A stretch of 25,166 nucleotides of DNA from a virus (lineage: Duplodnaviria > Caudoviricetes), in the IMG/VR virus record IMGVR_UViG_3300048589_001625, positions 1-25,166 of that record. The stretch is one strand, 5' to 3'. Within the stretch, counting starts at the first letter, position 1. The number at the start of each line of letters is the position of its first letter. Made by a program: the position numbers and the translations under genes. Under the pieces are notes generated by a model. The model was not told where the DNA came from. It searched no databases and was given only the letters and a program-made list of their open reading frames with translations. Shown here piece by piece: positions 1,180 to 25,166 of the stretch.

Positions 1180-1230
1180 CGTTGCGTTCCTAGTTGGCTG
1201 GAGGTGTGTTTTGCGTCGCGTTTTCTGCGT

Positions 1231-1313
1231 CGCGATGACACACATGAGCCATGCGTTTCGAGGAACCTCAAGCGAAGTCTTGCATGTTTTTCCCAGTAAT
1301 TTCCATGTTTTTC
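1231..1313 (-). promoter_or_regulatory. Repeated upstream element, copy 2 (putative promoter of the amidoligase)
   Basis: Matches 73-155. The minus strand reads TTGAGG-17 nt-CTCATG. It lies 52 nt upstream of the amidoligase ATG. Confidence 0.6.
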
Positions 1314-1453
1314 GAGAGGCCACCGGTGCCCCAACATTACGCCACCGTCGCGTCCAAATATGCTCCGCGTAACCAGGCGAACATGCGAACAGAACGCGAC
1401 GTTGCGCAAACGGTGACCCAACGTTTCGAGATGCCCAACTACGGAGGAATGCG

Positions 1454-1660
1454 ATGAGTGAAGGAAACAACCAGGTCGATCCGACGAGGCTCTCGGTCGA
1501 GCAGGCGGCGAAGCTGCTGGCGGCTGCCTATCGCGAACGCATCGAGCCAGAGAAGATCCGACTGGACCTACAAAATGGTGCGCCGGTGAACGTCGACGGG
1601 ACGATCAACCTCGTGCATTACAGCGCATGGCAAGCAAAGGAGATGGGACGTGGCGAGTGA
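1454..1660 (+). CDS. Small Nu1-like winged-HTH protein, putative terminase small subunit DNA-binding module, 68 aa
   Basis: GGAGGA RBS and overlap with the terminase start. The pattern L-x-V-x-x-A-A-K-L-L...G-A-P-V...N-L...A-W resembles the lambda Nu1 DNA-binding domain. Confidence 0.6.
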   Translation: MSEGNNQVDPTRLSVEQAAKLLAAAYRERIEPEKIRLDLQNGAPVNVDGTINLVHYSAWQAKEMGRGE

Positions 1661-8984: not shown

Positions 8985-9584
8985 ATGATTCATAAACAAT
9001 TGATTTCAGCCTGTGCATTGATGCTGCTCGTATTGGCTGGCTGCGATTCTGGCATCGTCAACGTTCGCGCATTGCCATCGCCTGAACCGGAGCAACCTCC
9101 AGCGAACTTGCCTGTGCAATTGCATCAGCGCAATTGGACGGGATCACTTGGTCAAGGAAGTTGCGTCCACGCCTCACTAGTCAATCATCTGCGTTGGCTC
9201 AACAAGTTCGAACTTAGTGAACGTTGGCGGGCGACCTATGCCGACGGTGAGTGGGACTCGCGGCTTCGTGATCGCTTGGATGCGGCCGGCATCGACTACA
9301 GCTTCACGCTCAAGGCCGACCCACGTTTTTTGGATTGGGCCAGCGCCACCAGGCGAGGAGCGATCCTCTGGTGGAAGCCCGCGCACTGCTGCACGTTCGT
9401 CGGTTGGATCGAACGCGATGGAAAGCAATATGCAGCGGTCCTCGACAACAACTATCCCGGACGTTTCGAGCTAACACCTCGTGAACAATTCATCCGCTTG
9501 TGGGCAGGCTACGGAGGCTTTGCCCTAACCGTTCTTAACGATCCAAGCAGTTCACTGCCTTACCAAAGTTATGAGGTTCTGTAA
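8985..9584 (+). CDS. Lipoprotein with papain-like (C39-like) cysteine peptidase domain, 199 aa
   Basis: Signal peptide with lipobox LAG-C and a Pro-rich linker. Candidate catalytic residues are in QGSCVHAS (Cys), KPAHCC (His) and VLDNN (Asp/Asn). Confidence 0.65.
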   Translation: MIHKQLISACALMLLVLAGCDSGIVNVRALPSPEPEQPPANLPVQLHQRNWTGSLGQGSCVHASLVNHLRWLNKFELSERWRATYADGEWDSRLRDRLDAAGIDYSFTLKADPRFLDWASATRRGAILWWKPAHCCTFVGWIERDGKQYAAVLDNNYPGRFELTPREQFIRLWAGYGGFALTVLNDPSSSLPYQSYEVL

Positions 9585-9589
9585 TCACC

Positions 9590-10642
9590 ATGATCAACGA
9601 TTCCGTTCGCATTCGTTTAAGTCTGGGTCTGATCGTGGTGGCCATCGTCCACGCGATTCTCCTGGGTATTGTGCTAACGACCGTACATTACAAGCCGGTC
9701 CAAGTACAACCTCAGCAACGCTGGGGTGTGCCGAGCTATCAGCCATCGGTGCCAAGCGTCGGCGCGATTGAAAAGCTTGAAGAGCCGCAGTCTGTGAACT
9801 TGCAAGCCCAGGGTGAGATCAAGCAACAGATCCGCAACTGTCCGCCGAACTGCCTACCTCAACGCGTCTATCCCGCGCCGGTAGTAGTTCAGCCCACAAT
9901 TGTGCAACCGACCGTCGTGACGCCAACTGTGACGCCCACAGTAGCCCCACCGGTACCTGCCACGCCGAGCTTTGTGGACACCCCAAAGCCAACACAGGGA
10001 CCGCTGGTCGTTACGCCCGTATCTAACCCGGCTTCACCTCCACCAAAGAAGAGTTACCAGATCGCATTGTTTGTTAACAGTGATTCCACCAGTCAAAAGC
10101 TACAGGATTGGTTCACGCAGAACAAACAATTGGCAGCGCTGAAGGAAAGCTGTGAGTTCCAGGTCTACACCTCTACTAATGCAATCTACAAGACCCGCTA
10201 TGCCGACATTGTGCCCGCCGAACAGTTTCCCGTTGTTCTCTTCCAAGATGCAACCGGCGGACACATTCACGCTGCCGGTCGATCGATGATTCCGAGTACT
10301 TCAGAGGAACTCTACTCGGATTTACGGCATGGTTACACGCTTTACAAACAAGCCAAGCAGGCACAGAAGACTGGAGCGGTGAAAACCAAGGGCTACTCCT
10401 GGGACGATGCAATCACACCAACTTTGTATCTATCGGCTGAAGATTGTCCGGATGGATATTGCCCGACGCCACCCTCCGAAGACCGCCGGCCACTGGATCG
10501 AGTACGCGATCTATTCGATGGCGCTACCGACACTCGCAATGCACTGATGTGGCTGTCGGCCGGCGAGATCGCCACGGTTGCACTGATTGGAATCGCTGCA
10601 GTTCTGCTCGTGTTCATCCTAGTCAAACGCGGCATTAACTAA
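9590..10642 (+). CDS. Membrane protein with N- and C-terminal hydrophobic helices, Pro/Thr/Val-rich linker and a possible thioredoxin-like domain, 350 aa
   Basis: TM segments LSLGLIVVAIVHAILLGIVL and IATVALIGIAAVLLVFILV-KR; CPPNC and CPDGYCP motifs; globular segment YQIALFV...FPVVLFQD..G. Confidence 0.7.
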   Translation: MINDSVRIRLSLGLIVVAIVHAILLGIVLTTVHYKPVQVQPQQRWGVPSYQPSVPSVGAIEKLEEPQSVNLQAQGEIKQQIRNCPPNCLPQRVYPAPVVVQPTIVQPTVVTPTVTPTVAPPVPATPSFVDTPKPTQGPLVVTPVSNPASPPPKKSYQIALFVNSDSTSQKLQDWFTQNKQLAALKESCEFQVYTSTNAIYKTRYADIVPAEQFPVVLFQDATGGHIHAAGRSMIPSTSEELYSDLRHGYTLYKQAKQAQKTGAVKTKGYSWDDAITPTLYLSAEDCPDGYCPTPPSEDRRPLDRVRDLFDGATDTRNALMWLSAGEIATVALIGIAAVLLVFILVKRGIN

Positions 10643-10690
10643 GCGTCGCTTTAACCCAATCCATTCTCCTAGCAGAGGTTTAGATCAAAC

Positions 10691-10969
10691 ATGTTACTAA
10701 CCATCGCCGTCATTGTGGTCGTTGTCTTGCTGGCAGTCGCTCTCCTTCCCATAAAGAAACGCGAACCAGAGCAACTCAGGCAAGCTTCCTCTGTTGCTTT
10801 CCTGAATCCAGAGCCAGCACAACCGGTCCGCCAAACAACGCTTCGTCAACAACAGCTCGACGAAGAGGCGACCGCGATTGCCTCCGAGTACCAGCTCCGC
10901 GCCGATGCGGTTTGGCTGGATGAAGTTCGAACGAAGGCTTCGAAGCTGCTTAGTGGGGAACAACAATGA
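10691..10969 (+). CDS. Small membrane-anchored protein, 92 aa
   Basis: N-terminal TM helix followed by KKR and a helical/coiled-coil tail. AGAGG RBS. Confidence 0.7.
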   Translation: MLLTIAVIVVVVLLAVALLPIKKREPEQLRQASSVAFLNPEPAQPVRQTTLRQQQLDEEATAIASEYQLRADAVWLDEVRTKASKLLSGEQQ

Positions 10970-13519: not shown

Positions 13520-13797
13520 CACTTCGCCAACTTGTGCTGATGGCAGAGGCCAGACGCCAGCACGACTGGAATGTCGCCAGCACGATCATGGCACTTATGG
13601 CCGAGATGAACCGCGATCGCAAGAGACGTCGCAAGCCATTCAGGCCCGATGACTTCAATCCCTACGCAGAACAGAAACCGATCGTTGCTCGCGGAACTGT
13701 TGAGCAAGCTGCAGCGATGCTCGGTGCAAGTTTTCAACCCAAGTTATCAGAGTCGCCATGTCTCAAGTCAAAGCTGGAGGAGCCTACGTCGAGCTGA
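13462..13797 (+). CDS. Second tail assembly chaperone segment (gpT-like), probably made as a -1 frameshift fusion; 5' boundary uncertain
   Basis: The -1 frame is open from 13291 to 13797. Protein-like sequence (IERLIIRLSGIIGVDPGPLTLRQLVLMAEARR...PDDFNPY) overlaps the end of the previous gene. Confidence 0.6.
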   Translation: MERLIIRLSGIIGVDPGPLTLRQLVLMAEARRQHDWNVASTIMALMAEMNRDRKRRRKPFRPDDFNPYAEQKPIVARGTVEQAAAMLGASFQPKLSESPCLKSKLEEPTSS

Positions 13798-16700
13798 CCG
13801 CGAGGAGCGCCCAGTTCCTCAAGGGGCTTGAGGCTGCGCAGAAGCGGCTGCAATCATTCGGCGCATCGACACGGATGATTGGCACCAAGCTGATGGGACT
13901 TGGTGTCGCCGCTGCCGCTCCCGTGGCTGGCAGTCTCGCAATCTATTCGAACTTCGATGATGCCATTCGCGCTGCGGGTGCGGTGGCTGGCGCGACTGGC
14001 GCGGCATTCGATTCTTTGCGTGAAAAAGCCAAGCTACTTGGTGCAACCACCAGTTTCTCTGCGAGCGAAGTCGCATCGCTGATGACCGAGCTTGGTCGCG
14101 CGGGTTTCTCGCCCAAGCAAATCGAAGAGATGACCGGCGCGGTGATGAATCTCGCAAGAGCCACCGGTACCGATGCAACCCTCAGCTCCGGCATCATGGC
14201 AGCCACAATCCGTCAGTTCGGCATGGCAGCTACCGATGCTACGCGCGTTTCCGATGGACTGACAGCCGCGGCCAACAAGTCGTTCAACTCGGTGGAATCT
14301 CTCGGTGAAGCATTGTCGTATGCAGGCCCGGTTGCTGCCAATGCGAACATGAGCCTGGAGGAGACGCTGGCGATTCTCGGCACTCTTGGAAATCTTGGCA
14401 TCCAAGGGAGCGAGGCCGGTACTGCGCTCCGTCGCTTGCTGACGTTAAGTGCATCCGAGTCGGAGAAGTTTCAAAAGGTCTTCGGAGTCGCCACCAAGGA
14501 TGCTCAAGGCAACGCCCGCAACCTTGTGGATGTGCTTGGTGAAGTGACGGCTGCCACCGCCAACATGGGCACTGGCGATCGCGCCGCGGCATTCAGCGAA
14601 GTCTTTGGTTTGCTTGGCATTACCAGTGCATCAGCCATCGGTAAGTCCGTTACCGACACGAGGCAGTTGCTTGGCGAGATCCAAAAGGCCCGTGGTATCT
14701 CGGCCAAGACCGCTGCTGATATGGATTCGGGAATCGGGGGTGCCTTCCGCATCCTTAAGAGCTCCATCGAAGGTGTGGCCATCGCGATCGGCGAGTCACT
14801 CGATCTCTCAGTGACCAAGATGATGAACGCAATCTCGCGTGCACTCTCCGGACTCACGGAATGGATCGGTAAGAATCAAGAGGTCGTCAAGAAGGTCGCT
14901 CTCATCATTGCCGGCGTGGTTGGCGTCGGCGCAGCATTCATCGGTATCGGAAGCGCTGCCGGAGTGGCTGCATTCGCCGTCGGTGGCCTGGCTTCGATGT
15001 TCTCGCTGGTGGGAACCGCAATCGGCGTTCTTGTGACCATGATCGGCGCTCTGTTCACGCCTCTCGGCTTGGTTGTCGCTGCCGTTGCGGCACTGGGTGC
15101 TTACTTCATTTATTCCACTGGAATTGCCGGCCAAGCGATCGAGTACTTGAAAGGTGTCTTCGAAACGCTGAAAGCCGACACGATCAAGGCCTTCGGTGCG
15201 ATCGCAAATGCACTGGCTGCCGGTGACATCACCGCCGCGGCCAACGTCCTGTGGACTTATCTCAAGCTCCAGTGGATCAAAGGCACCACGTATCTCAAAG
15301 GCGTTTGGGCCGACTTCACTAACTATCTTTCCGATGTGTGGGGCGATACTGCCTACGCAATCGGCGATGTGCTAATCAGTGCGCTGTCGGGACTCGCCAG
15401 CGTTTGGAATGCCACGCTAGGTTTCATGGCCGATGGCTGGACGATCCTCACGACCTCGGTGCAGAAGGGCTGGAACTCCACGATTGGATTCCTGAAGAAG
15501 GGATTCATTCGGCTGCGGGAACTTGTGGATATCGCTGGCGATGTTTCGGTACAGATCGGCGGCGTGCTCATCAATGCTCTGGCAGGTGTAGAGACTGCCT
15601 GGGTGGAAACGATCGACTATCTCGCCGACACCTGGTCGGTGTTCGTTGCCCAAGTCAAATCGATGTGGAACTCGACGGTGGGCTTTCTGCGTAAGGCATG
15701 GATCAAACTCAAGTCGCTGTTCGATGACGATGTGAATGTCGAAGTCGAAATGGCCAAGATCGACAAAGAGATCAAAACGGCCGACGAAGCTGAAGAAACC
15801 AAAAAGCAGCAAGCAATCGGCGATCGCATGAAACGTCGCGACGCTCGCAAAAAGCAAATCGAATCCAATCGCGTCCAGATGCAGGAAGGGATCAAGCAAC
15901 AGCTTGAAGAACGCCAAAAGGCCCGCGCTGGTCGCGACATTGATGCCGAGATGGCGGTCATCGATGAGGATACGGAAGCCAAGAACCAGGTAGTCGATGC
16001 TTCACGTGATGATGAGTTCGCGCAGAACGAAGCCGCCGGACAATCGTTACAAAAGACGATCGACGATACGACTGCTGGCGTCCAAAAGACACTCGATCAG
16101 ATGCGTGAGGAGGCTCGCGTCGCTCGAGAAGCGGGTCGCCAGTCGCCCGAAGATCGCGCCAAGCAGCGTGACGTACAGGTGTCTGCGGCTCAGGCGGAGT
16201 TCGATGCGGCTGTGGAAACAGCCAATGCAGCCAAGCCACAAGAACCGGAGGTTGCAAAACAACCCGACGCCAACATTCCAACTCTTCCATTGCCACCCAA
16301 GCCTGGCGATTTGAAGGTACCGAAAGTTGAAGTCGATGGTATCAAAGATCCCAAGCTGAAAGCTCCGAAGAAGAAGGACCTTAAACTCGGACTGGACCGC
16401 TCGGCCAAGGATTCGATGGATCAATTCTCCAAAGGTCCCGAAGAGCAAGTTGAAAAGACTGAGGCTGCCGGCAACTTTGACAGTCGTGGACTTGGTCTTG
16501 GAAGTGGTACCTCGCTAATTCCTGTCATTAAGCCACCAGATCAAAAGGATAAAGCGAACCCGGATGACGTCGATGCAGGTGTGAATGCGGATGCTGACGC
16601 TATCGAGCCCGAAGTCGAAGTGCCAGAGGTTGAACCCGAGCTTGGGCTGCAACCGATGGACGCTGAAATTTCTTCGCCAGAGGAGATGATCGAGCCGACT

Positions 16701-16937
16701 GCAGGGGAACCAGAGCCATCACTCAATCTCGAGTCAGTTCTGGCTTCGTTCGCAGCGGTTCGTGTGCGACTGAATGAGTTCGATGCTGCGCTTTCACAAA
16801 GCGTGGCAAGGCTTCAGATGCCACAAGTTATCGGCGAAGGCCTGTCGGATGATGTCAAACGAGCCATCATCGAAACCGCTGAGAACACCGCTCAGCTAGC
16901 CGAACGCGCACGCATAGGAGGCTTCGTGTTCAGCTAA
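13758..16937 (+). CDS. Tail tape measure protein (TP901 family core), 1059 aa
   Basis: Motifs AGGAYVEL, LGATTSFSASEVA..M.ELGRAG, LGEALSYAGPVA and GIQGSEAGTALR, with Ala/Gly-rich helices, a hydrophobic middle region and Trp-periodic repeats. Confidence 0.93.
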   Translation: MSQVKAGGAYVELTARSAQFLKGLEAAQKRLQSFGASTRMIGTKLMGLGVAAAAPVAGSLAIYSNFDDAIRAAGAVAGATGAAFDSLREKAKLLGATTSFSASEVASLMTELGRAGFSPKQIEEMTGAVMNLARATGTDATLSSGIMAATIRQFGMAATDATRVSDGLTAAANKSFNSVESLGEALSYAGPVAANANMSLEETLAILGTLGNLGIQGSEAGTALRRLLTLSASESEKFQKVFGVATKDAQGNARNLVDVLGEVTAATANMGTGDRAAAFSEVFGLLGITSASAIGKSVTDTRQLLGEIQKARGISAKTAADMDSGIGGAFRILKSSIEGVAIAIGESLDLSVTKMMNAISRALSGLTEWIGKNQEVVKKVALIIAGVVGVGAAFIGIGSAAGVAAFAVGGLASMFSLVGTAIGVLVTMIGALFTPLGLVVAAVAALGAYFIYSTGIAGQAIEYLKGVFETLKADTIKAFGAIANALAAGDITAAANVLWTYLKLQWIKGTTYLKGVWADFTNYLSDVWGDTAYAIGDVLISALSGLASVWNATLGFMADGWTILTTSVQKGWNSTIGFLKKGFIRLRELVDIAGDVSVQIGGVLINALAGVETAWVETIDYLADTWSVFVAQVKSMWNSTVGFLRKAWIKLKSLFDDDVNVEVEMAKIDKEIKTADEAEETKKQQAIGDRMKRRDARKKQIESNRVQMQEGIKQQLEERQKARAGRDIDAEMAVIDEDTEAKNQVVDASRDDEFAQNEAAGQSLQKTIDDTTAGVQKTLDQMREEARVAREAGRQSPEDRAKQRDVQVSAAQAEFDAAVETANAAKPQEPEVAKQPDANIPTLPLPPKPGDLKVPKVEVDGIKDPKLKAPKKKDLKLGLDRSAKDSMDQFSKGPEEQVEKTEAAGNFDSRGLGLGSGTSLIPVIKPPDQKDKANPDDVDAGVNADADAIEPEVEVPEVEPELGLQPMDAEISSPEEMIEPTAGEPEPSLNLESVLASFAAVRVRLNEFDAALSQSVARLQMPQVIGEGLSDDVKRAIIETAENTAQLAERARIGGFVFS

Positions 16938-17728
16938 TGGGATTCTCAAGCGGTGGATACAACTTCGAACTAGCAGCGCTGTCCAAGAAGGCAACGCGCG
17001 GCAAATCAACGTCGGACACGTTCGTCTATGTTGGGACCAACGGTGGCGCGGTTGATCCTGCCACTGCAGCCGATGCTTTGTTGTCGTATTACCGATCCAA
17101 TCAACCAAACCTCATCCCGTTTCTACAGGTTGATGGCGAGTACATCAACGAGAAGCACGCACTCGTCACGGCGTCAATCAATAGGACCAAACTTGATCCA
17201 GTCTCCTTCAACACCACCGGCGCATCGACGCATCTCAATCAATCACTCTTTACCCGTGGCATCTACGCCGCGCCGGGCAAGATCGCTCCCAACTATCGAG
17301 GTGCCATTGGTGTAAGCGACTCGGGCGTCGCCGGCGTGGATGTAACCGTTCCAGCGTTCGAGTTTTCTGTCCGTAAGAAGTTTGAGTTCGTCTCGACAGC
17401 TTACCTTCTCGCCATGGTCGCCATGACCGGACGAGTCAACTCAAGTCCCTGGTCGATCTTCGCGCCTGGCGAAGCCTTGTTTCTGGGTGGAGAAGGTGGC
17501 GAGGACGATCAGAACTGGGTCGATGTGACCTATCACTTCGCGGCGCGACCGAATGAGATGAATCTCACGGTTGGCAATATCGCAGGCGTTGCAAAACGTG
17601 GCTGGGATTATCTCTGGGTCAAGCATGGCGAAGAGGTGGTCGGCGATCGCGTTCTGCAAGTTCCTGAAGCTGCTTACGTCGAGCAGGTTTACCCCGAAGC
17701 GAACTTCAACGCATTGGGGATCGAGTAA
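16937..17728 (+). CDS. Hypothetical tail-tip protein (distal tail/hub position), 263 aa
   Basis: TAATG coupling to the tape measure and to the next gene. Beta-rich. No family recognised with certainty. Confidence 0.65.
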   Translation: MGFSSGGYNFELAALSKKATRGKSTSDTFVYVGTNGGAVDPATAADALLSYYRSNQPNLIPFLQVDGEYINEKHALVTASINRTKLDPVSFNTTGASTHLNQSLFTRGIYAAPGKIAPNYRGAIGVSDSGVAGVDVTVPAFEFSVRKKFEFVSTAYLLAMVAMTGRVNSSPWSIFAPGEALFLGGEGGEDDQNWVDVTYHFAARPNEMNLTVGNIAGVAKRGWDYLWVKHGEEVVGDRVLQVPEAAYVEQVYPEANFNALGIE

Positions 17729-20310
17729 TGGCCCGTCGCGTTAAACCAGGCGATAAACTCAACATCACCGCAGCGGAATACAACCGTCTGCTGGTGGCGG
17801 CCGATGCAGTTGCTCGCGATCGACTCGCCGGTGGCGCAGGAAACCGCACCCACGTTCGCGACGCTGCCACCGTTCGCGTTCACTACCAATCTGCGGCCAC
17901 TGTGCCCATCGGTGGAATCGTCGGTTTTAACGCCCCACTGGGCGATCCTGACGTGGGGCCCGCGGAACTCGCTCGCTTCGTACGCGATGCCACGATCCAG
18001 TCGGTTCGACCTGTCGCCGAAGAGCACGCGGGTCGGTTCGGTGTGGCCATCGAGCCGATCGCGGAGGACAAAGTCGGTCGCGTGGTATTTGCCGGAGTGG
18101 TCGCTGCCCGGGTGAACGTACAGGAGACCTGGCATCAGTATGCTGACGTTGCCGAGTCTGGCGGATCAACGCTGCAGTCGAAGCCCAACGGGTCGGCACA
18201 AATACTATGGCGACGCGATGCGAATCAAACAGGCGTCCAGTGGGCTGTTGTTCGAGTCGGTAAGCCGGCCGATCCAGCTTTCCTTATAAAAGTGCCGAGC
18301 GGTGGTATCGCAGGGCGTTCCGGTTTAGCCACGGGTTCAGCCAACTGTGACCTCTTTCAGCTAGACGATTCCGGCACAATTGAACCAGTCTTGAATCCAA
18401 GTGGTCAATCCGTTCGCATCATCGCTCGCAACCCAAGTGCCCAGCGCATTCGAGGCCCGGTTTCCAACTACGACGATGGGCAGTATCTCAGCGTCACGTA
18501 CGATGGCAATCGTTCCTGGATCATCGATCCGCCGAAACAGACTCTGTTATGTAAACCAGTCTCACGCCTCAAAGCCAAGAGCTGGGGCATGGCTCGTGAA
18601 CTGCGGTTCGCCAATGGCGTTTGGGCACCGATCGGAGTAAAGGTCGCGGTCTACAACGTCTGTGACTATGCGCTTCTGACAAGCCAGCAGATCGTTTGTC
18701 ATTTCCATGAGGACACCAGCGCGTACCTAACCATTGGATGCCGTTGCTGTGAGGGGAGCAGTAGTTCGAGTTCCAGCAGCAGTTCGTCTAGCTCATCTTC
18801 GTCATCACTTTCATCAAGCAGTTCAAGCAGTAGTTCGTCGAGTCCGTCTTCGTCGAGTAGCTCGAGCTCATCGAGTTCCTCGTCATCAAGCAGCTCAAGT
18901 GACTCGTCAAGTTCTTCTTCAGGCTCGAGTAGTTCATCCAGCTTGTCGAGCTCTTCATCACTTTCGTCCAGTAGTTTGAGTAGCGGCTCAAGCAGTAGCT
19001 CATCGAGTCCGTCATCGTCGAGCGGTTCAAGTATCTCATCGAACTCATCAAATTCTTCTAGTTCGCTCAGTTCTTCTAGTAGCAACTCATCTATGAGTTC
19101 GTCGTCGAGCGATCTGTCGAGTTCTAGCTCAAAGTCGTCTTCATCAAGCTTGAGTTCATCCAGCCCCTCCTCGTCGAGCTCCTCGGAATCAAGTTCGTCG
19201 CATTCAAGCTCCAGTGAGTCCAGCCACTCATCTAGTTCTGGATCATCAGCATCAAGCGGTTCTTCTAGCGAATCGAGCGAATCGATTTCACTGAGCGAGC
19301 CTTCGTACTCAAGTAGTCACTCATCGAGCGGATCGAGCTCCGTATCGAGTGGTTCAAGCCAATCCAGCGGCTCAAGCGGATCAAGCTCCAGTGAATCGGA
19401 TTCAAGCCAGTCGGAATCCAGTAAGTCTGAATCAAGTGAATCAGATTCGGATTCGTCGCGCGGCAGTGAATCCTATTCAAGCGACGCAAGCTACAGCCAG
19501 TCCTCTAGCGATAGCGACTCTGGTTCATCTAGTGGCAGCGATTCCAGCAAGAGCGGTTCGAGCGAAAGCGACAGCAGCCAGTCCGATAGTTCGGAAAGTG
19601 ACTCGACCAGTTCGGAAAGCGGCAGCGAATCTGAAAGCCAGTCGGATTCCCAAGCCCCGAGCAGTGATAGCCACTCGGTACCGAGTTACTCGTGGCCAAG
19701 CTACTCGCAACCCAGTTATTCCAGTGGAAGCGGTTCTGCGTCTACCAGCGTTTCCAGCGAAAGCAACAGCGAATCGCAGAGCGAGTCGGAAAGCGAATCC
19801 GACAGCCAATCCGAAAGCAATTCAGTGAGTCAATCACGTTCCGAAAGCGAACCATCAAGTGGCGATAGTTCGGAAAGTCGATCGAGCAGCGATCGACCAA
19901 GTTACAGCGAAAGCCATAGCGTGCCATGGTCAACCAGTCACTCAACCAGTGATTCCGCTAGTCATTCGCAAATCGATTCAGGCAGCGGATCGACAAGCGA
20001 ATCTGACAGTGATTCTTCACCATCAACCAGCGATTCTCGCGATCCATCAACCAGTGACTCAAATGATCCGTCAACAAGCGATCCCCCAGACCCATCCACC
20101 AGCGAGTCTGATCGTCCGAGCGTAAGCCATTCCGATAGCGAACCGCCAAGCGAACCTCCCACGTCCGACAGCAGCACGAGCGAGCCATGCAATACGACAT
20201 GGATCTGGTCCTGCGGTTGGCAGCTTCTTGAAAGCGATTGTCCCGAAGTCGGCGATCCGCCCGGTGGCTCTGGTGGATTTGATGGTGAAGTCGTGGAGGT
20301 GGCAGCATGA
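17728..20310 (+). CDS. Serine-rich mucin-like putative tail fibre/virion protein, 860 aa
   Basis: About 343-aa globular N-terminus ending in GCRCC, a Ser-dominated tract at 18757-20181, and a Cys/Trp/Gly C-terminal cap. No signal peptide. Located at the tail-fibre position. Confidence 0.8.
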   Translation: MARRVKPGDKLNITAAEYNRLLVAADAVARDRLAGGAGNRTHVRDAATVRVHYQSAATVPIGGIVGFNAPLGDPDVGPAELARFVRDATIQSVRPVAEEHAGRFGVAIEPIAEDKVGRVVFAGVVAARVNVQETWHQYADVAESGGSTLQSKPNGSAQILWRRDANQTGVQWAVVRVGKPADPAFLIKVPSGGIAGRSGLATGSANCDLFQLDDSGTIEPVLNPSGQSVRIIARNPSAQRIRGPVSNYDDGQYLSVTYDGNRSWIIDPPKQTLLCKPVSRLKAKSWGMARELRFANGVWAPIGVKVAVYNVCDYALLTSQQIVCHFHEDTSAYLTIGCRCCEGSSSSSSSSSSSSSSSSSLSSSSSSSSSSSPSSSSSSSSSSSSSSSSSSDSSSSSSGSSSSSSLSSSSSLSSSSLSSGSSSSSSSPSSSSGSSISSNSSNSSSSLSSSSSNSSMSSSSSDLSSSSSKSSSSSLSSSSPSSSSSSESSSSHSSSSESSHSSSSGSSASSGSSSESSESISLSEPSYSSSHSSSGSSSVSSGSSQSSGSSGSSSSESDSSQSESSKSESSESDSDSSRGSESYSSDASYSQSSSDSDSGSSSGSDSSKSGSSESDSSQSDSSESDSTSSESGSESESQSDSQAPSSDSHSVPSYSWPSYSQPSYSSGSGSASTSVSSESNSESQSESESESDSQSESNSVSQSRSESEPSSGDSSESRSSSDRPSYSESHSVPWSTSHSTSDSASHSQIDSGSGSTSESDSDSSPSTSDSRDPSTSDSNDPSTSDPPDPSTSESDRPSVSHSDSEPPSEPPTSDSSTSEPCNTTWIWSCGWQLLESDCPEVGDPPGGSGGFDGEVVEVAA
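20020..20115 (+). repeat. Four degenerate 24-bp tandem repeats encoding PSTSDSRD/PSTSDSND/PSTSDPPD/PSTSESDR
   Basis: Units start at 20020, 20044, 20068 and 20092. Confidence 0.8.
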
Positions 20311-20879
20311 TCCATTGTCCTAATTTGACCAACGACAACCGATGCCAGGTTGCCAGTCACATGGCAGAATGCCCCGTCCAGGCTTCATCCAGCGGTTGCC
20401 GAGCATGCACCGAGTGTTCCAACCCACAAGCGATCAACCTTGTGACGATCGGCATGGCCATCGTTAACCGGCGTCGGCGCAATCAAAACGTCGACGAACT
20501 CAAAACACTGCTGAAAAGCTACCTGCCTAATCAGGAAGAACCCGCGACTCTACGAATCGCGGCCTATAGGCCTGGGCCAGGTAACGAACTTCGCAAGATG
20601 CTCGCTTGGTTCGCCAGACCCAGCGACACCTGCAAGTGTGAGACCCGCGCCGAGACCATGAATGATTGGGGCGTGGAAGGATGCCGTACGAATCTCGACA
20701 CCATTATCGAATGGCTTTTGGAAGAAGCCCAACTCAGAGGATTACCCCATGGAAAGTTTACTAGAACGATCGCCAAGTCACTCGTGCTCACCGCCATCCG
20801 TCGGTTTGAACGTAAGTTCCCAGACGGTGCACCCGAGCCCAACGAAGACGATCCTGATGCCGACGAAGAAGATCGTTGA
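20307..20879 (+). CDS. Cys-rich hypothetical protein, 190 aa
   Basis: ATGA-coupled to the Ser-rich gene with a GGAGG RBS. Motifs CP..., CRACTEC and GPGNEL...CKC..RA..MN.WG..GC, with an acidic tail. Confidence 0.75.
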   Translation: MIHCPNLTNDNRCQVASHMAECPVQASSSGCRACTECSNPQAINLVTIGMAIVNRRRRNQNVDELKTLLKSYLPNQEEPATLRIAAYRPGPGNELRKMLAWFARPSDTCKCETRAETMNDWGVEGCRTNLDTIIEWLLEEAQLRGLPHGKFTRTIAKSLVLTAIRRFERKFPDGAPEPNEDDPDADEEDR

Positions 20880-22227
20880 ACGTTGCTTCTTAATGAATCT
20901 CGACCGGCGCGATGATCGACTCCATGAGTGGATGCAGCAACTGCCTCAGCCTTGGCCGTTTCCTGATGTCGAGCGATTCGCCGCCATCGATGGTCGCAGG
21001 CTTTCAACGCCGGAACAGTGGCGCGCTGGCAATGGTGCCTGGGGCTGCTACCGCTCGCACCTGCTCATCCTCGAAAAGTGCTTGCTTGAAGGCATCGATT
21101 CCTATGTGGTTTTTGAAGACGATGCCGGCTTTGTGCCCGACTTTGTTGAACACCTCGAAGCCTACGTGCGCGAGTTGCCCGAAGACTGGGGGTTGGCTTA
21201 CCTGGGAGGTCAACACCTCTACGCGGCCAAACATCCACCCAAGAAGATCAGCGATCACGTTTACCGACCTTATAACGTCAACCGTACTCACGCATTCATG
21301 GTGCGTGGACGAACGACGATGAAGGCATTGTATCGTCATCTCAACTGGAACGACTGGCATCTGAAGCATCACATCGACCATCACCTCGGCCGCTTGACTC
21401 AGCGGCGCTATGAAGCGCTGGTTCAGGGCAAGAACGTCGAGAAAGAATCGATTCCTGTTTACACACCCGATCGTTGGCTCGTCGGCCAGTTACCGACCAA
21501 ATCGAACATCTGCGGTCGCAAATGGACGCAGACGCGATTCTTCAACGATGCCAAGAACGCCGACCACAGCGACGCTCCATTCTTCGCCGTTCTCGGTCCC
21601 CATCGCAGTGGTACCAGTTGCGTGGCAATGATTATGCATCATCTGGGCGTTCACATGGGTAACGAGCTCGGTGGCTATGAAGCGACTGGAGGCGGCGAAG
21701 CGATCGGCCTAGCCCAGCTCTGTGAAAAGGCGATGCGATTCCCAGCGATCGATCCGAAGACGGCGGACGGTCAGCTGAGCAAGCAACTCAAGGCCTGGAT
21801 CGTAACGCGGAAGGCAGAAGCCATTCGCGATCGAACCGTGGCAGGGGGTAAGTATCCGCATCTCTGCCGATTCGCAAATCATCTCTACGAGGCCCTTGGT
21901 AACTCGCTCCATATCATCGCCGTTGATCGCCCGATCGAAGCGTCGATTCGCTCGCTTCAAGATCGCAGCAAGCGACACCCTGGCCAATGGTTCGCAGCCG
22001 GCGACGAGGCCTGCGACAAACTTCAGCGTTCGCTGCTCGAACACCGTGAGACGTTCATTCAAGAACATCCCGAGGTGCCAGTGCATCGCATCAACTTTGC
22101 CAAGCTGACGGAAGATCCGGAAACCGTGATCAACGAGTTGATCGCATTCCTCGGAATCGAGCCCACAGCGGAAGAGATCGATTCAGCGATCGCCCACGTC
22201 AATCCGGAGTTGAGGAAGTTCGGATGA
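20857..22227 (+). CDS. GT25 glycosyltransferase fused to a PAPS-dependent sulfotransferase, about 456 aa
   Basis: GT25 motifs FLMNLDRRDDR, RFAAIDG, GAWGCYRSH, VFEDDA and THAF. The sulfotransferase domain starts near 21580 with 5'-PSB VLGPHRSGTS, K.P, 3'-PB R-P...SIRS and INFAKLTEDP...LIAFLGI. Confidence 0.85.
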   Translation: MPTKKIVERCFLMNLDRRDDRLHEWMQQLPQPWPFPDVERFAAIDGRRLSTPEQWRAGNGAWGCYRSHLLILEKCLLEGIDSYVVFEDDAGFVPDFVEHLEAYVRELPEDWGLAYLGGQHLYAAKHPPKKISDHVYRPYNVNRTHAFMVRGRTTMKALYRHLNWNDWHLKHHIDHHLGRLTQRRYEALVQGKNVEKESIPVYTPDRWLVGQLPTKSNICGRKWTQTRFFNDAKNADHSDAPFFAVLGPHRSGTSCVAMIMHHLGVHMGNELGGYEATGGGEAIGLAQLCEKAMRFPAIDPKTADGQLSKQLKAWIVTRKAEAIRDRTVAGGKYPHLCRFANHLYEALGNSLHIIAVDRPIEASIRSLQDRSKRHPGQWFAAGDEACDKLQRSLLEHRETFIQEHPEVPVHRINFAKLTEDPETVINELIAFLGIEPTAEEIDSAIAHVNPELRKFG

Positions 22228-22670
22228 CACCAGTTGAAGACGTCCTCGCTAGGTTGCGGCATCGCTACATCATCATCGGCTCCGGCGCACTGCGGTTGCA
22301 TGGGATCGATTGGGAAGAAGGCGATCTGGACATTTGGCTTGATCCCAATCTATCCGATGAGGACTGGCAAGCGTCTGTCGATGATGCTGCTGGTTCTCTC
22401 AAGCGACCGTGGAAGCGAGGAGAGCCAGACGGATCAGGAGGACTGCGTGCATCGACTCGCATCGCATGTTCGCCACCGCTGGACGTGATGCGCGAAGTCA
22501 TGGGTTGCACGGCTGAGGACTTTGAAAAAGCCTTCGATAACTCGCTCATCTCGTTCTACGGCAATGTCGCTCCACTGAATTCAATCATGCACATCAAACG
22601 CAGCGCGAAGCGTCTCAAAGACTATCGCCATGCCATCAAACTTGCTCGCAAACTCCTTACCGCGTGGTGA
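22224..22670 (+). CDS. Nucleotidyltransferase (Pol-beta superfamily), 148 aa
   Basis: IIIGSGAL..HG...GDLDIW (hG[GS]x9-13DhD signature), a third Asp in PLDVM, and C-terminal K...R.KD. Confidence 0.7.
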   Translation: MTPVEDVLARLRHRYIIIGSGALRLHGIDWEEGDLDIWLDPNLSDEDWQASVDDAAGSLKRPWKRGEPDGSGGLRASTRIACSPPLDVMREVMGCTAEDFEKAFDNSLISFYGNVAPLNSIMHIKRSAKRLKDYRHAIKLARKLLTAW

Positions 22671-22673
22671 AAC

Positions 22674-23429
22674 ATGGAAGCAACGGTACCCATTCAAGAC
22701 ATTACTTTTTGCATTAAAACCATCCATCGGCCTTGGGCCTGCCATCGACTCGTTCAGTCGCTTCGAAATGAGTTCGGCGAACCCAAGATTGTGGTCGTGG
22801 ACGATGGACTGCCCGAACACTGGTTCTCTCGCAAGTATCCCGAGACAGCCAAACACTGCAAAGTGATCGACCTCGAGCAGCATGATGTGGGCGTTGGGAT
22901 CGGACGCAACACTGCGATCGACGCTGCCGAAACGGAGTTCATCTTTCTGCTGGATGATGACCAGATCGTGACGCCCGATCTACATCTCGATCGAGTCTAC
23001 CAACGGTTCATTGAGTACGACCTGGATATTCTAGCAGTCCGTCAGGGCGCTGGCGGCCGACCGATGCTTTTCAGCCCGCTGATGAATGGCACTCGGATCT
23101 GGATGCATCGTGGCGAACACAAACGCATCGGCGAAACCTGTTGGTGCGACATGGTCAGCAACGCTTTTCTTGCTCGTCGCGAAACGATTGCACGTGTTCG
23201 CTGGGACGACGAGATCAAGACGTATGAGCACTGGGAGTTCTTCTACCGTGCGTCCCAGATTGAACATCTGCAAATTGCCGTGGCACTCGACTGCTCGGTA
23301 GTCCACGACCATGTGGCAGCCAAGCCATACGGAGCACTGCGAGCCCGACCGAAGTTCCGCCGACTGGGGCTTCGCAAACACGGCTTTGATTCATTGCGCT
23401 ACCCAGGAGGAGGCATCGTCCATGCGTGA
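22674..23429 (+). CDS. GT-A glycosyltransferase (GT2 / B4GALNT-like), paralog 1, 251 aa
   Basis: Motifs ITFCIKTIHRP, VVVDDG, GVGIGRN, FLLDDD, NAFLAR and WDDEIKTYEHWEFF. Confidence 0.85.
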   Translation: MEATVPIQDITFCIKTIHRPWACHRLVQSLRNEFGEPKIVVVDDGLPEHWFSRKYPETAKHCKVIDLEQHDVGVGIGRNTAIDAAETEFIFLLDDDQIVTPDLHLDRVYQRFIEYDLDILAVRQGAGGRPMLFSPLMNGTRIWMHRGEHKRIGETCWCDMVSNAFLARRETIARVRWDDEIKTYEHWEFFYRASQIEHLQIAVALDCSVVHDHVAAKPYGALRARPKFRRLGLRKHGFDSLRYPGGGIVHA

Positions 23430-24150
23430 TCGCGTAACATTTTGCATCAAGACCATTCATCGCCCTCATTGCTGCGCAACGCTGGTGCGCAGCATTTACG
23501 AGCACTGTGGCGATGAGCGTCCGCTGATCTACGTCCTCGATGATGGCAGGCCGGAACTTCGCTTTTCGCAAACTTGCCCTGATGAAGCGGCTATGGTCGA
23601 TCGACTGATCGAGACCGAATACGACATCGGCTTGTCGGCTGGTCGCAATCGCCTGGTAGAAGCCGCCCAAACTCGCCTGGTGATCTTCTCAGATGATGAC
23701 CACGTGGTTGGTCCACAGACTCGGCTGAATGATCTTGTTCGTAAGTTCGAATCAAGTCGGCTGGATCTGTTGGCAACGCTCAGTAAGCAACCCCATCGCC
23801 CTCATCCAGACGGAACTCCCCGGCTGCTCACTTCGTCCGGTGGAGTACTCCATATTCCACGTGGTGAGTATCGGCGCATTGGCGACATTGCCGAATGTGC
23901 ATTCGTTTGTAATTGCTTCGTTGCCTATCGCGATGTTCTCCAGGCGGTTCGCTGGGACGAGGATCTGAAGGTTGACGAGCATTGGGACTTCTTTTGGCGA
24001 GCCAAGGTTGCCGGCGTCAGGGTTGGCGTGGCGATGGACCATGTGTTCCCGCACATTCACGTCGACCCGCCGGCATACAAGCGGCATCGGCCCATGTTCT
24101 TAAGAGCTGCACTTCGTAAACACGGACTAAGGAAGGTACTTTGGAAATGA
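23422..24150 (+). CDS. GT-A glycosyltransferase (GT2 / B4GALNT-like), paralog 2, 242 aa
   Basis: GGAGG RBS before ATG 23422. Motifs VTFCIKTIHRP, YVLDDG, GLSAGRN, FSDDD and WDEDLKVDEHWDFF. Confidence 0.85.
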   Translation: MRDRVTFCIKTIHRPHCCATLVRSIYEHCGDERPLIYVLDDGRPELRFSQTCPDEAAMVDRLIETEYDIGLSAGRNRLVEAAQTRLVIFSDDDHVVGPQTRLNDLVRKFESSRLDLLATLSKQPHRPHPDGTPRLLTSSGGVLHIPRGEYRRIGDIAECAFVCNCFVAYRDVLQAVRWDEDLKVDEHWDFFWRAKVAGVRVGVAMDHVFPHIHVDPPAYKRHRPMFLRAALRKHGLRKVLWK

Positions 24151-25166
24151 AACGAGTCATCGCAATTCTGGATTTGCCACCGCGCCGTGCGGTACCGACG
24201 GTACGAGAGAGTGTCGAGGCTGCTGCCGAGAGATGGAACGCCGAACTGTATTGGATTCGACGTCCTCTTCTACCATGTCATCCGTTCTGGCAAAAGATGT
24301 TTGTCTGTGGCGATGTCGCAAAGCGGTTTGGTCCATCGCATGTCCTGCAAATCGACAATGACATGGTGATTCGCAGCGACTGCCCATCGCCTTTCGAGTT
24401 GGCTGCACCTGGCCAATTCGCAATGGTGGCCGAACGACAATGCGCTCAGAACCGAATCGACAACGGCGGGTGGCAAAAGACAGCGCACGAGATTTGGGCC
24501 AAGCGTTGTCGCCTCAATCCCGCGCCGACCTGGATGCATCCTAACGGTGGGCTTTATCTCTACGACACAAAAACGTTTGCTCGCATGTTCGAGCGAATCA
24601 TCCAGTACTTGATCGTCACCTTCGGTGCAAACGACCAAGCAACCGACGAGTCGCTGATCATCAATCAACTGTGGAACGATCAAGCGGATTTGATCACTTT
24701 CCTGCCGCCTGACTTCAATGTCAGTATGTTGCAGACGCCGGAGTGGGCAACCAATCCTGTGATGCAGTCCTTTGTTTACCACTTCATAGGTCCCAGTAAA
24801 CCGCACCTGGATCGATGTCGCTGGCAACGAAGCAATCCGCCTGAGTTGCCTTTTCCTGATAACCGCCAATCGATCGAACTGATCAACGAGTGGAAAGATA
24901 AGCCGCCGGCCAGCTACGACGTGGGCACTGTCTTTCGACCCGATCTCGCTGCGAACTTGCTGGCTACGTTTCCGAATCTGATCGTCTCAGGGACGTGGTC
25001 CGACGAGCTGACTGTTTACGACGAAAGACTGACGAGCTTGGATGAAACGTTTTCATCGCATTTGGTGCTAACGCGATTTCTCATCCGTCTGGGCGTGAAT
25101 GCTCGTCGATTCAAACTTCGGATCAAGGAGGGCGACGATGCAACGCTTCAGCTTGCCCGCTCTTGA
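24147..25166 (+). CDS. GT8-like GT-A glycosyltransferase with a C-terminal extension, 339 aa
   Basis: Motifs WQKMF, VLQIDND (DxD), PNGGLYLY, DESLIIN, LPPDFN and YHFIG..KP occur in GT8 order. ATGA-coupled start; stop is the last codon of the window. Confidence 0.72.
   Translation: MKRVIAILDLPPRRAVPTVRESVEAAAERWNAELYWIRRPLLPCHPFWQKMFVCGDVAKRFGPSHVLQIDNDMVIRSDCPSPFELAAPGQFAMVAERQCAQNRIDNGGWQKTAHEIWAKRCRLNPAPTWMHPNGGLYLYDTKTFARMFERIIQYLIVTFGANDQATDESLIINQLWNDQADLITFLPPDFNVSMLQTPEWATNPVMQSFVYHFIGPSKPHLDRCRWQRSNPPELPFPDNRQSIELINEWKDKPPASYDVGTVFRPDLAANLLATFPNLIVSGTWSDELTVYDERLTSLDETFSSHLVLTRFLIRLGVNARRFKLRIKEGDDATLQLARS

Follow-up and report, generated by a model that had tools for sequence, protein, structure and literature searches.

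The tail operon of a lambda-like phage contig closes with a protein dominated by serine and a cassette of glycosyltransferase (GT) genes, one of them fused to a sulfotransferase. The contig was analysed over its whole length of 25,166 nucleotides (the window; Table 1). We conclude that this temperate planctomycete phage likely carries a predicted sulfated, mucin-like brush on its particle. The conclusion draws on the fold predicted for the N-terminal domain of the serine-rich (Ser) protein, on purifying selection on its Ser tract and on the recurrence of GT genes beside such tracts in other phages.

Table 1. Features of the tail-tip module and enzyme cassette in the window
Feature	Position	Strand	Basis or remark
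Tail tape measure protein	13758..16937	+	Pfam PhageMin_Tail 1e-45; PHROG tape-measure families
263-aa conserved gene	16937..17728	+	Between tape measure and Ser protein
Ser protein, N-domain	17728..18753	+	AF2 model and structural alignment; ends in CRCC
Ser protein, poly-Ser tract	18754..20187	+	478 aa, 298 Ser; predicted O-glycan acceptor
Ser protein, C-terminal cap	20188..20310	+	40 aa; conserved C..TWIWSCGW...C motif
Cys-domain protein	20307..20879	+	Unnamed family with two small helical domains; candidate GT adaptor
GT25-sulfotransferase fusion	20749..22227	+	Pfam; PAPS-type sulfotransferase; candidate initiating transferase and glycan-capping enzyme
Nucleotidyltransferase-like ORF	22224..22670	+	148 aa; GS..L.G...DxD motif; accessory
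GT2a	22674..23429	+	B4GALNT-like glycosyltransferase; Pfam GT2 8e-12
GT2b	23422..24150	+	Paralogue of GT2a, about 39% identical; Pfam GT2 1.4e-6
GT8-like protein	24147..25166	+	GT-A; Pfam GT8 0.018; accessory

The serine-rich protein and its locus

All genes from the tape measure to the last GT lie on one strand with overlapping stop/start junctions, and downstream of the Ser protein (ORF 17728-20310, 860 aa) the junctions are overlaps plus one 3-bp gap (22670/22674). From the Ser gene to the contig end, neither a promoter-like site on the plus strand nor a terminator-like site was seen, which is weak evidence. Coordinates re-derived here agree with the ORFs and junctions given in a preliminary description of this DNA, with the start of GT25-sulfotransferase corrected to 20749 as the most likely and that of GT2b to 23422, which has AGGAGG upstream. 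That description had also suggested that the cassette runs past the window, and relatives bear this out: a radical SAM gene follows the cassette beyond the point corresponding to the contig end in 43 of 45 close loci.

The tape measure is the upstream anchor of the tail-tip module. The position of the 263-aa gene suggests a distal-tail or hub role; searches of Pfam, PHROG and NCBIfam and of a cultured-phage collection returned no match, and its closest ESM clusters are viral and unnamed. It has at least 579 confirmed relatives in viral contigs, and its family is estimated at 880 viral-contig stretches.

The N-domain of the Ser protein was modelled with AF2 (pLDDT 67, pTM 0.60) as a beta-tulip of the cement or head-fibre-base type (about aa 42-180) and an OB-fold-like part (aa 268-342). 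Its best VIA-align match is 8qsy (Z 10.6, rmsd 2.5, 108 residues aligned), and capsid or portal-vertex chains fill all but one of the top 14 rows (13), the exception being the phi29 gp12 C terminus; matches to the OB-fold part reach Z 4-5 only. Foldseek against the PDB gave nothing at E ≤ 0.001, with T1 and FCWL1 capsid chains ranked at prob 0.98-0.99. Two genes apart from that of the Ser protein encode cement proteins in this phage, and the N-domain matches the phage's own cement gene at E 0.034 only. On the model, the N-domain is a virion-protein fold, and we predict that the protein is anchored to the virion through its beta-tulip. Because the matches are to capsid cement proteins, both a head and a tail location are compatible with the fold.

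The tract was described as about 475 Ser-dominated residues, in line with the 478 found here (residues 343-820), which include 298 Ser (62%; 82% over residues 343-520) and become more acidic towards the C terminus. Compared with three relatives, synonymous codon changes exceed non-synonymous ones (150/64, 161/68 and 67/22) and indels are mostly in-frame; thus the tract is a feature of the protein. DNA slippage, artefact and misassembly are ruled out as its origin by these codon changes, by the use of all six Ser codons and by tandem repeats in the DNA that are only short and weak. Among 75 complete close relatives the Ser tail varies from 210 to 723 aa with 86-428 Ser. By thirds, 66 distinct tracts hold 80, 58 and 44% Ser and 5, 16 and 21% Asp plus Glu; together they contain 359 Tyr, often in SEPSYS or ESYS contexts.

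The cap is found in all 75 complete W-type relatives and is swapped for another domain, preceded by a short Ser linker, at five loci (L028, L030, L078, L098 and L099). At two of these, L030 and L098, the N-domain protein keeps the short linker and the long tract sits in the next gene, fused to the C-terminal half of the Cys domain and directly preceding GT25-sulfotransferase. The Ser protein and every cassette enzyme are devoid of hydrophobic stretches (maximum 19-residue hydropathy ≤1.14), which agrees with the earlier statement that the Ser protein has no signal peptide. No other fibre gene is present.

The enzyme cassette and its co-occurrence with Ser tracts

GT25-sulfotransferase matches Pfam GT25 at 4.9e-10 (40 bits against a cut-off of 24) and Sulfotransfer_3 at 1.1e-6, and both Sulfotransfer_3 and Sulfotransfer_1 score over cut-off. 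Profile matches of the GT25 part are COLGALT1 (1.4e-11, spanning only profile positions 4-129), mimivirus R655 (7e-7) and bacterial GT25 (0.005); those of the sulfotransferase part are weak and mixed (TPST1/2 at about 1e-3, the CurM sulfotransferase at 0.002, and 2zq5). The two domains are fused in 39 diverse sequences, in which WGCYRSH, EDD, HxD, G..[RS]SG[TS]S, KYP and R...S are invariant or nearly so. The GT25 motifs G..GC..SH and EDD are found in 39/39, as are the G, G and S of the sulfotransferase loop together with K, R and S, and the loop Arg is found in 30/39; the loop presumably binds the 5'-phosphosulfate and R...S the 3'-phosphate. A tblastn search of 50,697 phage records with this protein gave only four weak partial matches, to uncultured large phages. 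GT25 is a plausible initiating O-glycosyltransferase for the tract, since its nearest relative by profile, COLGALT1, is a protein O-galactosyltransferase, in which the GT25 lobe is reported as the catalytic domain and uses the EDD motif (PMC12987934).

The best PDB match of GT2a is B4GALNT1 (1.5e-6). The earlier identities of GT25-sulfotransferase and the two GT2 enzymes are upheld by Pfam and PDB matches, and those of the 148-aa ORF and the GT8-like protein are less secure. The 148-aa ORF had no match in family searches and is labelled from its GS..DxD motif only, which we take to indicate a nucleotidyltransferase; the GT8-like protein scores 15.1 bits against a curated cut-off of 24.3, matches LgtC at E 0.076 and has 11 aligned homologues, of which three match GT8 weakly and five carry a fused Methyltransf_24 domain.

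The Cys-domain protein (AF2 pLDDT 84) found no clear match in fold searches (best Z 6.0) and falls in no named fold or named ESM cluster, which does not establish a new fold. Its family comprises 5,638 clusters (50% identity) at E ≤ 0.001. In 10 of 13 homologues longer than 300 aa the Cys domain is joined to GT25-like or Stealth-like (transferase-like) domains, and a PDB sequence search with the joined domain returned nothing. These fusions make it a candidate adaptor that would bring GTs to the tract.

The close relatives of the locus are Planctomycetota prophages, mostly of Pirellulaceae. Among loci long enough to show each gene, the Cys-domain protein is present in 64/64, GT25 in 63/63 (one a fragment), the sulfotransferase in 61/62 and GT2a or GT2b in 43/46, although these counts describe a single inherited block without independent events. 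The nucleotidyltransferase (15/45) and the GT8-like gene (24/45) are not core. One close locus (L048) keeps the tract and has lost most of GT25-sulfotransferase and both GT2 genes.

Of 31 distant GT25 clusters (34-44% identity, different scaffolds), 19 are preceded within 3.5 kb by a tract of at least 20 Ser per 40 aa. The count for a same-size window farther upstream is 0 of 26, a control that is not matched for position, as it falls among other tail genes. Of the 12 clusters lacking an upstream tract, two carry one on the downstream side, and Cys-rich ORFs (5-19 Cys per 60 aa) lie upstream of every one of the 12. The Cys-domain HMM matches just 16 of 35 distant clusters, several of which were used to build it.

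A matched control used the 263-aa gene as its reference. A GT lies beside 9/9 tract-bearing loci compared with 1/8 tract-less loci; this collapses to three GT lineages (3/3 versus 1/8, Fisher p=0.024). The GTs at the tract-bearing loci belong to GT4, GT71 and sialyltransferase-like families; L221 and L235, from another lineage, have a GT4-type gene beside the tract. Where the N-domain occurs without a tract, other fibre-type genes come next (a Gp80 fibre domain; L253 and L257). Tract and GT are both gone at L249 relative to L239 and L252, and as this was a single deletion it adds no independent support. The predicted sulfation is specific to the present lineage: elsewhere the tract is accompanied by methyltransferases and by GTs of the GT4, GT71 or sialyltransferase-like kind. 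A DNA pattern scan anchored on Ser, kept outside these counts, returned 20 stretches, several known and several off-target, of which 15 were examined; the new informative loci were L186, L188 and L197 (L186 with GT25 downstream) and L192, which has a sulfotransferase, a GT and a radical SAM gene.

The co-occurrence of tract and enzyme genes proposed in the preliminary description thus holds at three evolutionary depths. The counter-evidence that it named, GTs without a tract, is seen in part, in 12 of 31 distant clusters and at the tract-less locus L233 with its GT2 and sulfotransferase genes. Its reading of a sulfated bottle-brush gains from this co-occurrence and from the virion-type fold of the N-domain, and is weakened by the tract-less GT25 clusters and by the optional status of the nucleotidyltransferase and GT8-like genes.

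Proposed pathway and alternative readings

We consider it probable, judging from sequence, that the cassette O-glycosylates the Ser tract, and sulfation of the tract glycan in this lineage is a possibility that we hold more tentatively. The soluble GTs and sulfotransferase would act on the tract in the host cytoplasm. GT25 would add the first sugar to Ser, and the two B4GALNT-like GT2 enzymes, with the optional GT8-like enzyme, would lengthen the glycan. The fused sulfotransferase would then cap it using host PAPS, a step that methyltransferases may take in other lineages. The Cys-domain protein would recruit the enzymes to the tract, and a radical SAM enzyme encoded past the end of the contig may tailor a sugar. 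APS kinase was found in 5/5 host genomes, and Sat-type ATP sulfurylase was absent from all five.

The enzymes might instead put their sugars on other parts of the virion, namely the capsid, the tail tube or Cys-rich distal domains, leaving the tract as a mainly unmodified stalk for the cap. About a third of the distant GT25 clusters are tract-less with Cys-rich ORFs in place of the tract, the phage virion glycans described in PMC12363180 and PMC12619734 decorate subunits of the capsid and the tail tube, and the five loci with a different C-terminal domain have short Ser linkers. However, most phages that share these tail-tip genes and have no tract are GT-free, the long tract of L030 and L098 has moved to the gene directly before GT25-sulfotransferase, and several hundred Ser under purifying selection would seem more than a linker requires. 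We regard this reading as unlikely. Distinctly improbable, in our view, is that the block is a lysogenic-conversion moron that acts on the LPS, EPS or S-layer glycans of the host, as in superinfection exclusion or serotype change, and neighbours the tail gene only through a shared prophage end. Pfam names GT25 for LPS biosynthesis, a family that does include LPS enzymes, GT2a has weak matches to EPS enzymes, serotype conversion by GTs of temperate phages is documented (PMC12619734), and in the G002 prophage the cassette is the final block before host genes. Against it stand the single-strand, overlapping arrangement that runs from the tape measure through the last GT, a cassette with neither membrane nor export segments and no flippase-like gene seen with it, the recurrence of different GT families next to Ser tracts and their general absence elsewhere, and a GT25 far nearer to COLGALT1 than to any bacterial GT25 of solved structure. 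Morons also use the prophage end at which the cassette lies.

Other readings concern the chemistry. If the tract is glycosylated, the sulfotransferase could sulfate the protein directly, on Tyr in an acidic context or on Ser, or the sulfotransferase fold could perform another kind of capping. The profile matches to the tyrosylprotein sulfotransferases TPST1/2 and the average of 5.4 Tyr per tract fit this, but those matches are part of a weak and mixed set, the domain is joined to a GT throughout its diverse homologues and neighbouring cassette GTs carry fused methyltransferases, as suits glycan capping; we give it little credence. Scarcely credible is hypermodification of phage DNA: phage GTs often modify DNA (PMC12619734) and GT2a has a weak TAGT match (1.2e-5, under cut-off), but the cassette is in a late tail-operon position linked to Ser tracts, and the close-family cassettes showed no gene for base hydroxylation or for a base kinase.

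On the preferred reading, a glycosylated tract, the brush would serve adsorption or shielding, and with no other fibre gene it is likely to stand in place of a protein fibre. A bolder version, which we rate as unlikely, is that in planctomycete phages a sulfated O-glycan brush replaced the receptor-binding fibre and mimics sulfated polysaccharides that the hosts bind and take up, so that glycan capture by the host adsorbs the phage. A swappable GT and capping toolkit, recruited by Cys-domain adaptors, would then set host range much as fibre-tip swaps do.

Significance and comparison with known systems

In the literature searched, with most subscription papers outside its scope, we found no phage poly-Ser tail protein with a glycosyltransferase or sulfotransferase. 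If the proposal is true, phages make sulfated structures that resemble proteoglycans, and host recognition could depend on a glycan instead of a protein tip; the literature searched gave no case of sulfation on a phage particle. The locus would also provide glycoengineering with glycan sulfotransferases and with soluble Ser O-glycosyltransferases of bacterial type. Judged by the thousands of Cys-domain clusters and the roughly 880 stretches with the 263-aa gene, the module is common. Cultured Pirellulaceae strains, Stieleria, Novipirellula and Aporhodopirellula among them, carry intact copies, which makes the claim testable by induction. Metatranscriptome contigs, from three soil runs of one study plus one other run, span all 30 bins between the head genes and the GTs; as a contig neither demonstrates transcription nor allows genes to be ranked, this coverage is not evidence.

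Gtr-type serotype conversion cassettes combine a membrane flippase with an integral-membrane transferase, whereas no protein of the present cassette has a transmembrane segment. Virion glycosylation is reported for the mycobacteriophages Che8, Corndog and Myrna (PMC12363180, PMC12619734, PMC11256854) and resembles the present system in that phage-encoded GTs act on virion proteins, in the cytoplasm as we infer here. In those systems the glycans are described on subunits of the capsid and tail tube, and the GTs of one described genome are close to its 3' end; the present phage has, at the tail-tip position, a dedicated tract of several hundred Ser, and its cassette is inside the tail operon. 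Homologues of the GTs Che8 gp110 and Corndog gp38 were looked for with GT25-sulfotransferase as the query, and its four matches among the 50,697 phage records were all to uncultured large phages. The GT25 and GT2 enzymes, sulfotransferase, radical SAM gene and Cys-domain partner also set it apart.

The serine-rich repeat proteins of Gram-positive bacteria share a long Ser-rich acceptor gene beside a variable GT set, cytoplasmic O-glycosylation, as proposed here, and a possibly non-catalytic partner, GtfB, a part that we propose for the Cys-domain protein. Going by the portions of the source used (PMC6973325), they differ in having a signal peptide, an LPxTG anchor and dipeptide repeats, whereas the Ser protein has neither of the first two and combines homopolymeric Ser with a phage structural-fold anchor. 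SecA2/Y2 export genes were absent among the scanned ORFs of the window and the G002 prophage ORFs, and the GtfA/GtfB (GT-B) priming pair is also absent, the window having only GT25, GT2 and GT8-like enzymes.

COLGALT1 (GLT25D1) and mimivirus R655, the nearest solved relatives of the GT25 part, share its domain with the EDD motif, and COLGALT1 is a precedent for a GT25 that works on a protein hydroxyl; the acceptor given in the accounts drawn on is collagen hydroxylysine, for R655 as a proposal only (PMC12987934, PMC9546862). Unlike them, GT25-sulfotransferase has no N-terminal GT2 lobe, has a C-terminal sulfotransferase and is encoded in a window with no collagen. The beta-tulip fold of residues 42-180 or so is shared with HFTV1 8qsy, FCWL1, the phi29 gp8.5 N-base and the phi29 gp12 C terminus. 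In contrast to cement and head-fibre-base proteins, the Ser protein is encoded after the tape measure and not among the head genes, and its beta-tulip leads on to an OB-like domain, then to the Ser tract and the cap.

The serine-rich gene and its neighbours

The virus record spans 25,166 bases in full and coincides with the window. Pfam and PHROG family scans reveal a lambda-like structural operon composed of terminase, portal, a protease-capsid fusion, two cement, head-tail joining, tail completion, major tail and tape-measure genes. The tape measure is followed by a 263-aa gene and the gene for the 860-aa Ser protein, and then, through overlaps or a 3-bp gap, by a Cys-rich gene, a GT25 glycosyltransferase-sulfotransferase fusion (GT25-ST), a small ORF, two GT2 genes whose top PDB match is B4GALNT1, and a gene with weak likeness to GT8. 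We take the small ORF, which had no family match in the scans, to be nucleotidyltransferase-like from its motif. The ORFs, junctions and Ser-dominated tract agree with the preliminary description of the Ser protein and the gene series behind it. The Ser tract (residues 343–820) holds 298 Ser in 478 residues, uses all six codons and contains only weak DNA repeats. Relative to three homologues, synonymous codon changes are two to three times as frequent as non-synonymous ones, and indels are mostly in-frame. Further upstream, the ORFs between the head and head-tail genes gave no family matches and are possibly a planctomycete-type lysis block.

Features of the window and of related loci (L numbers)
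Sequence	Position	Feature
Window	322–1470, minus	382-aa ORF, GIEFE...DGS motif, presumably amidoligase-like
Window	8985–10969	Between head and head-tail genes: lipoprotein-like ORF (motif presumably Cys/His peptidase-like), 350-aa membrane-anchored ORF, small hydrophobic ORF
Window	16937–17728	263-aa gene
Window	17728–20310	Ser protein
Window	20307–20879	Cys-rich gene
Window	20749 (probable start)–22227	GT25-ST
Window	20749–20879	Overlap of GT25-ST frame with Cys gene
L016	15734–16908	Radical SAM and Pro/Trp/His-rich small gene
L011	14343–15494	Extra enzyme-like gene
L022	12199–12942	Extra enzyme-like gene
L026	14947–15738	Extra enzyme-like gene
L037	17224–17868	Extra enzyme-like gene
L263	13228–14733	Ser-tract protein (domain presumably Hint-like) beside methyltransferase and sialyltransferase-like genes
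L267	7740–8951	As L263

Close relatives in Planctomycetota

Searching with the N-terminal domain (N-domain) of the Ser protein returned 100 loci, 39 in viral contigs and 61 in genomes, the latter all from Planctomycetota and in the majority from Pirellulaceae. In one genome (G002) the cassette lies at one end of the element and genes that we read from their ORF sequences as serine-recombinase-like and replication-type lie at the other; we therefore regard the close-family elements as prophages. Single genomes carry three or four prophages of the same type (L049, L056, L072 and L081; L050, L069 and L073).

A complete Ser protein with a WxWxCGW cap is present at 75/100 loci, with a tail of 210–723 aa containing 86–428 Ser. 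Among close loci with enough downstream DNA we found the Cys gene in 64/64, GT25 in 63/63 (a fragment in L048), the sulfotransferase in 61/62, GT2 in 43/46, radical SAM in 43/45, a Pro/Trp-rich gene of 120–140 aa in 35/42, the GT8-like gene in 24/45 and the nucleotidyltransferase-like gene in 15/45. These counts define a core of tract, Cys protein, GT25-ST, GT2s and radical SAM. Because the close loci are one inherited block, with duplicates between collections, the counts measure conservation and not independent association. The radical SAM gene of the relatives falls beyond the contig end, so that the cassette does continue past the window, as had been suspected. Its neighbour, in either order, is the small Pro/Trp/His-rich gene (motif PxWWPxDWPWPP...WPRLPPDHPYHLPPGY), whose product may be either a peptide substrate or a structural component.

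Several relatives depart from this arrangement. Five (L028, L030, L078, L098 and L099) have a short acidic Ser linker and another C-terminal domain (KSTAIVPASF...EVRFDD); in two of these, L030 and L098, the next gene holds the long tract, joined to the C-terminal half of the Cys domain. Most of GT25-ST is deleted in L048, the rSAM-GT8-GT2b segment is inverted in L093, and the extra variable genes within the cassette (L011, L022, L026 and L037) have no Pfam or NCBIfam match. Among more distant loci, tract and GT71 are lost together in L249, and a GT7C-like domain is fused with a radical SAM domain in L235.

Serine tracts and glycosyltransferases in distant relatives

As a matched control we used an anchor that is neither tract nor enzyme, the 263-aa gene, for which at least 579 relatives were confirmed in viral contigs; of these, 80 were retained, and we inspected the 55 distant ones. 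At least 2.9 kb of downstream sequence was available for 20 of the 55, giving 17 by ORF layout once duplicates (L227, L264 and L268) were left out. All 9/9 tract-bearing loci encode glycosyltransferases from families other than GT25: a GT4 alongside GT2 and radical SAM (L221, L235), a GT71 type (L239, L252, L256, L262), or a sialyltransferase-like enzyme, assigned by PHROG in L263 and by visible likeness to it in L254 and L267. Tracts are thus accompanied by glycosyltransferases of at least four families. Among the 8 tract-less loci, where the family scan took in 61/71 ORFs (the others having been scanned earlier or overlapping the 263-aa gene), only L233 has glycosyltransferase and sulfotransferase genes. 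Collapsed to lineages, glycosyltransferases occur in 3/3 with a tract and 1/8 without (Fisher, p=0.024). Tract-less members retain a short N-domain version, with other fibre-type genes after it; the tract is thus an optional addition to a tail-tip gene that is itself conserved.

Run in reverse, with GT25-ST as the query, the search gave 90 viral-contig relatives. We kept the best 80, of which 55 were distant (34–44% identity); these form 35 clusters at 80% identity, 31 of them with 3.5 kb upstream. A tract (at least 20 Ser in 40 residues) lay within that distance in 19/31 of these clusters, drawn from the best 80 of 90 relatives, against 0/26 in a control window of the same size, not position-matched, 5.5–9 kb upstream; a downstream tract was present in 3/26. 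The scaffolds bearing these tracts are unlike the window's N-domain, and several of the loci have a tape-measure gene two or three genes upstream. The surrounding enzymes vary (GT32-like, GT2, GT34, GT61, Stealth, Stf0 sulfotransferase, sugar epimerases), with numerous Methyltransf_24 fusions. Of the 12/31 clusters lacking an upstream tract, 2 have one downstream, and all 12/12 have Cys-rich ORFs upstream. The proposed co-occurrence of tract and glycosyltransferases was seen in the close family, in these 19 clusters and at the nine anchored loci; the 12 clusters without an upstream tract and L233 go against it.

A possible glycosylated fibre

The best matches of a profile built from 39 GT25-ST sequences are human COLGALT1 (1.4e-11) and mimivirus R655 (7e-7), with solved bacterial GT25s far below (0.005); its sulfotransferase half weakly matches 2zq5, CurM and TPST1/2. 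The EDD motif and key sulfotransferase residues are invariant. The GT25 lobe of COLGALT1 is the catalytic one and uses EDD (PMC12987934), and R655 is a putative enzyme only (PMC9546862). APS kinase is encoded in 5/5 host genomes.

The Cys protein is confidently predicted to form two small helical domains, for which structure searches found no named fold. Its profile retrieved 5,638 clusters; 13 of the best 150 exceed 300 aa, 6 with a C-terminal domain aligning to the GT25 profile (E 3e-4, probability 40%, QDD on EDD), 4 with a Stealth-like domain (1 by Pfam, all 4 with phrog_7999) and 3 with something else fused. Being joined to both enzyme and acceptor suggests that it is a candidate adaptor. 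In all adjacent homologues the GT25-ST frame is open across a 120–132-nt overlap with the Cys gene end. The only consistently present start codon lies at that distance, preceded by AGAGGA, and none of the nearer ATGs is conserved. The two frames may overlap at length, or a programmed frameshift may join the Cys domain to GT25.

The N-domain was modelled with AF2 (pLDDT 67). Residues ~42–180 of the model match capsid cement and head-fibre base proteins of the beta-tulip fold (best Z 10.6, rmsd 2.5, 108 aligned), and residues 268–342 weakly match OB-folds; weak named BFVD matches are mainly virion and fibre proteins. These matches support a virion protein, which could belong to the head or to the tail. 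The place of the gene speaks for the tail tip, and the operon showed no other fibre gene.

We consider it rather probable that the cassette O-glycosylates the tract; that the product is a sulfated glycan is a more tentative proposal. The tract would be modified in the cytoplasm late in infection, with priming by GT25, extension by the GT2s and capping by the sulfotransferase, and the product would be mounted through the beta-tulip domain. It is unlikely that other virion parts are glycosylated and the tract is a stalk. Conversion of host glycans in lysogeny, which would suit a cassette at a prophage end, seems a little less likely again, given the cassette's translational coupling and its lack of membrane parts; a hydropathy scan found no hydrophobic segments in the downstream proteins. 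Direct sulfation of protein is improbable, and modification of phage DNA by these enzymes would surprise us most. Planctomycetes are specialists in sulfated polysaccharides, and one idea is that a glycosylated tract might serve as bait for a polysaccharide-binding host.

A targeted literature search, which reached few subscription journals, found no matching published system. The cassette partly resembles glycosylation of the serine-rich repeat proteins of Gram-positive bacteria (PMC6973325) but is not that system, because export signals and GtfA/B are both missing from it; it also partly resembles mycobacteriophage virion glycosylation (PMC12363180, PMC12619734, PMC11256854). By analogy, it may work like a hybrid of the two. 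We see it as a putative form of phage virion glycosylation, set apart by its dedicated acceptor, its sulfotransferase and its unnamed partner family.
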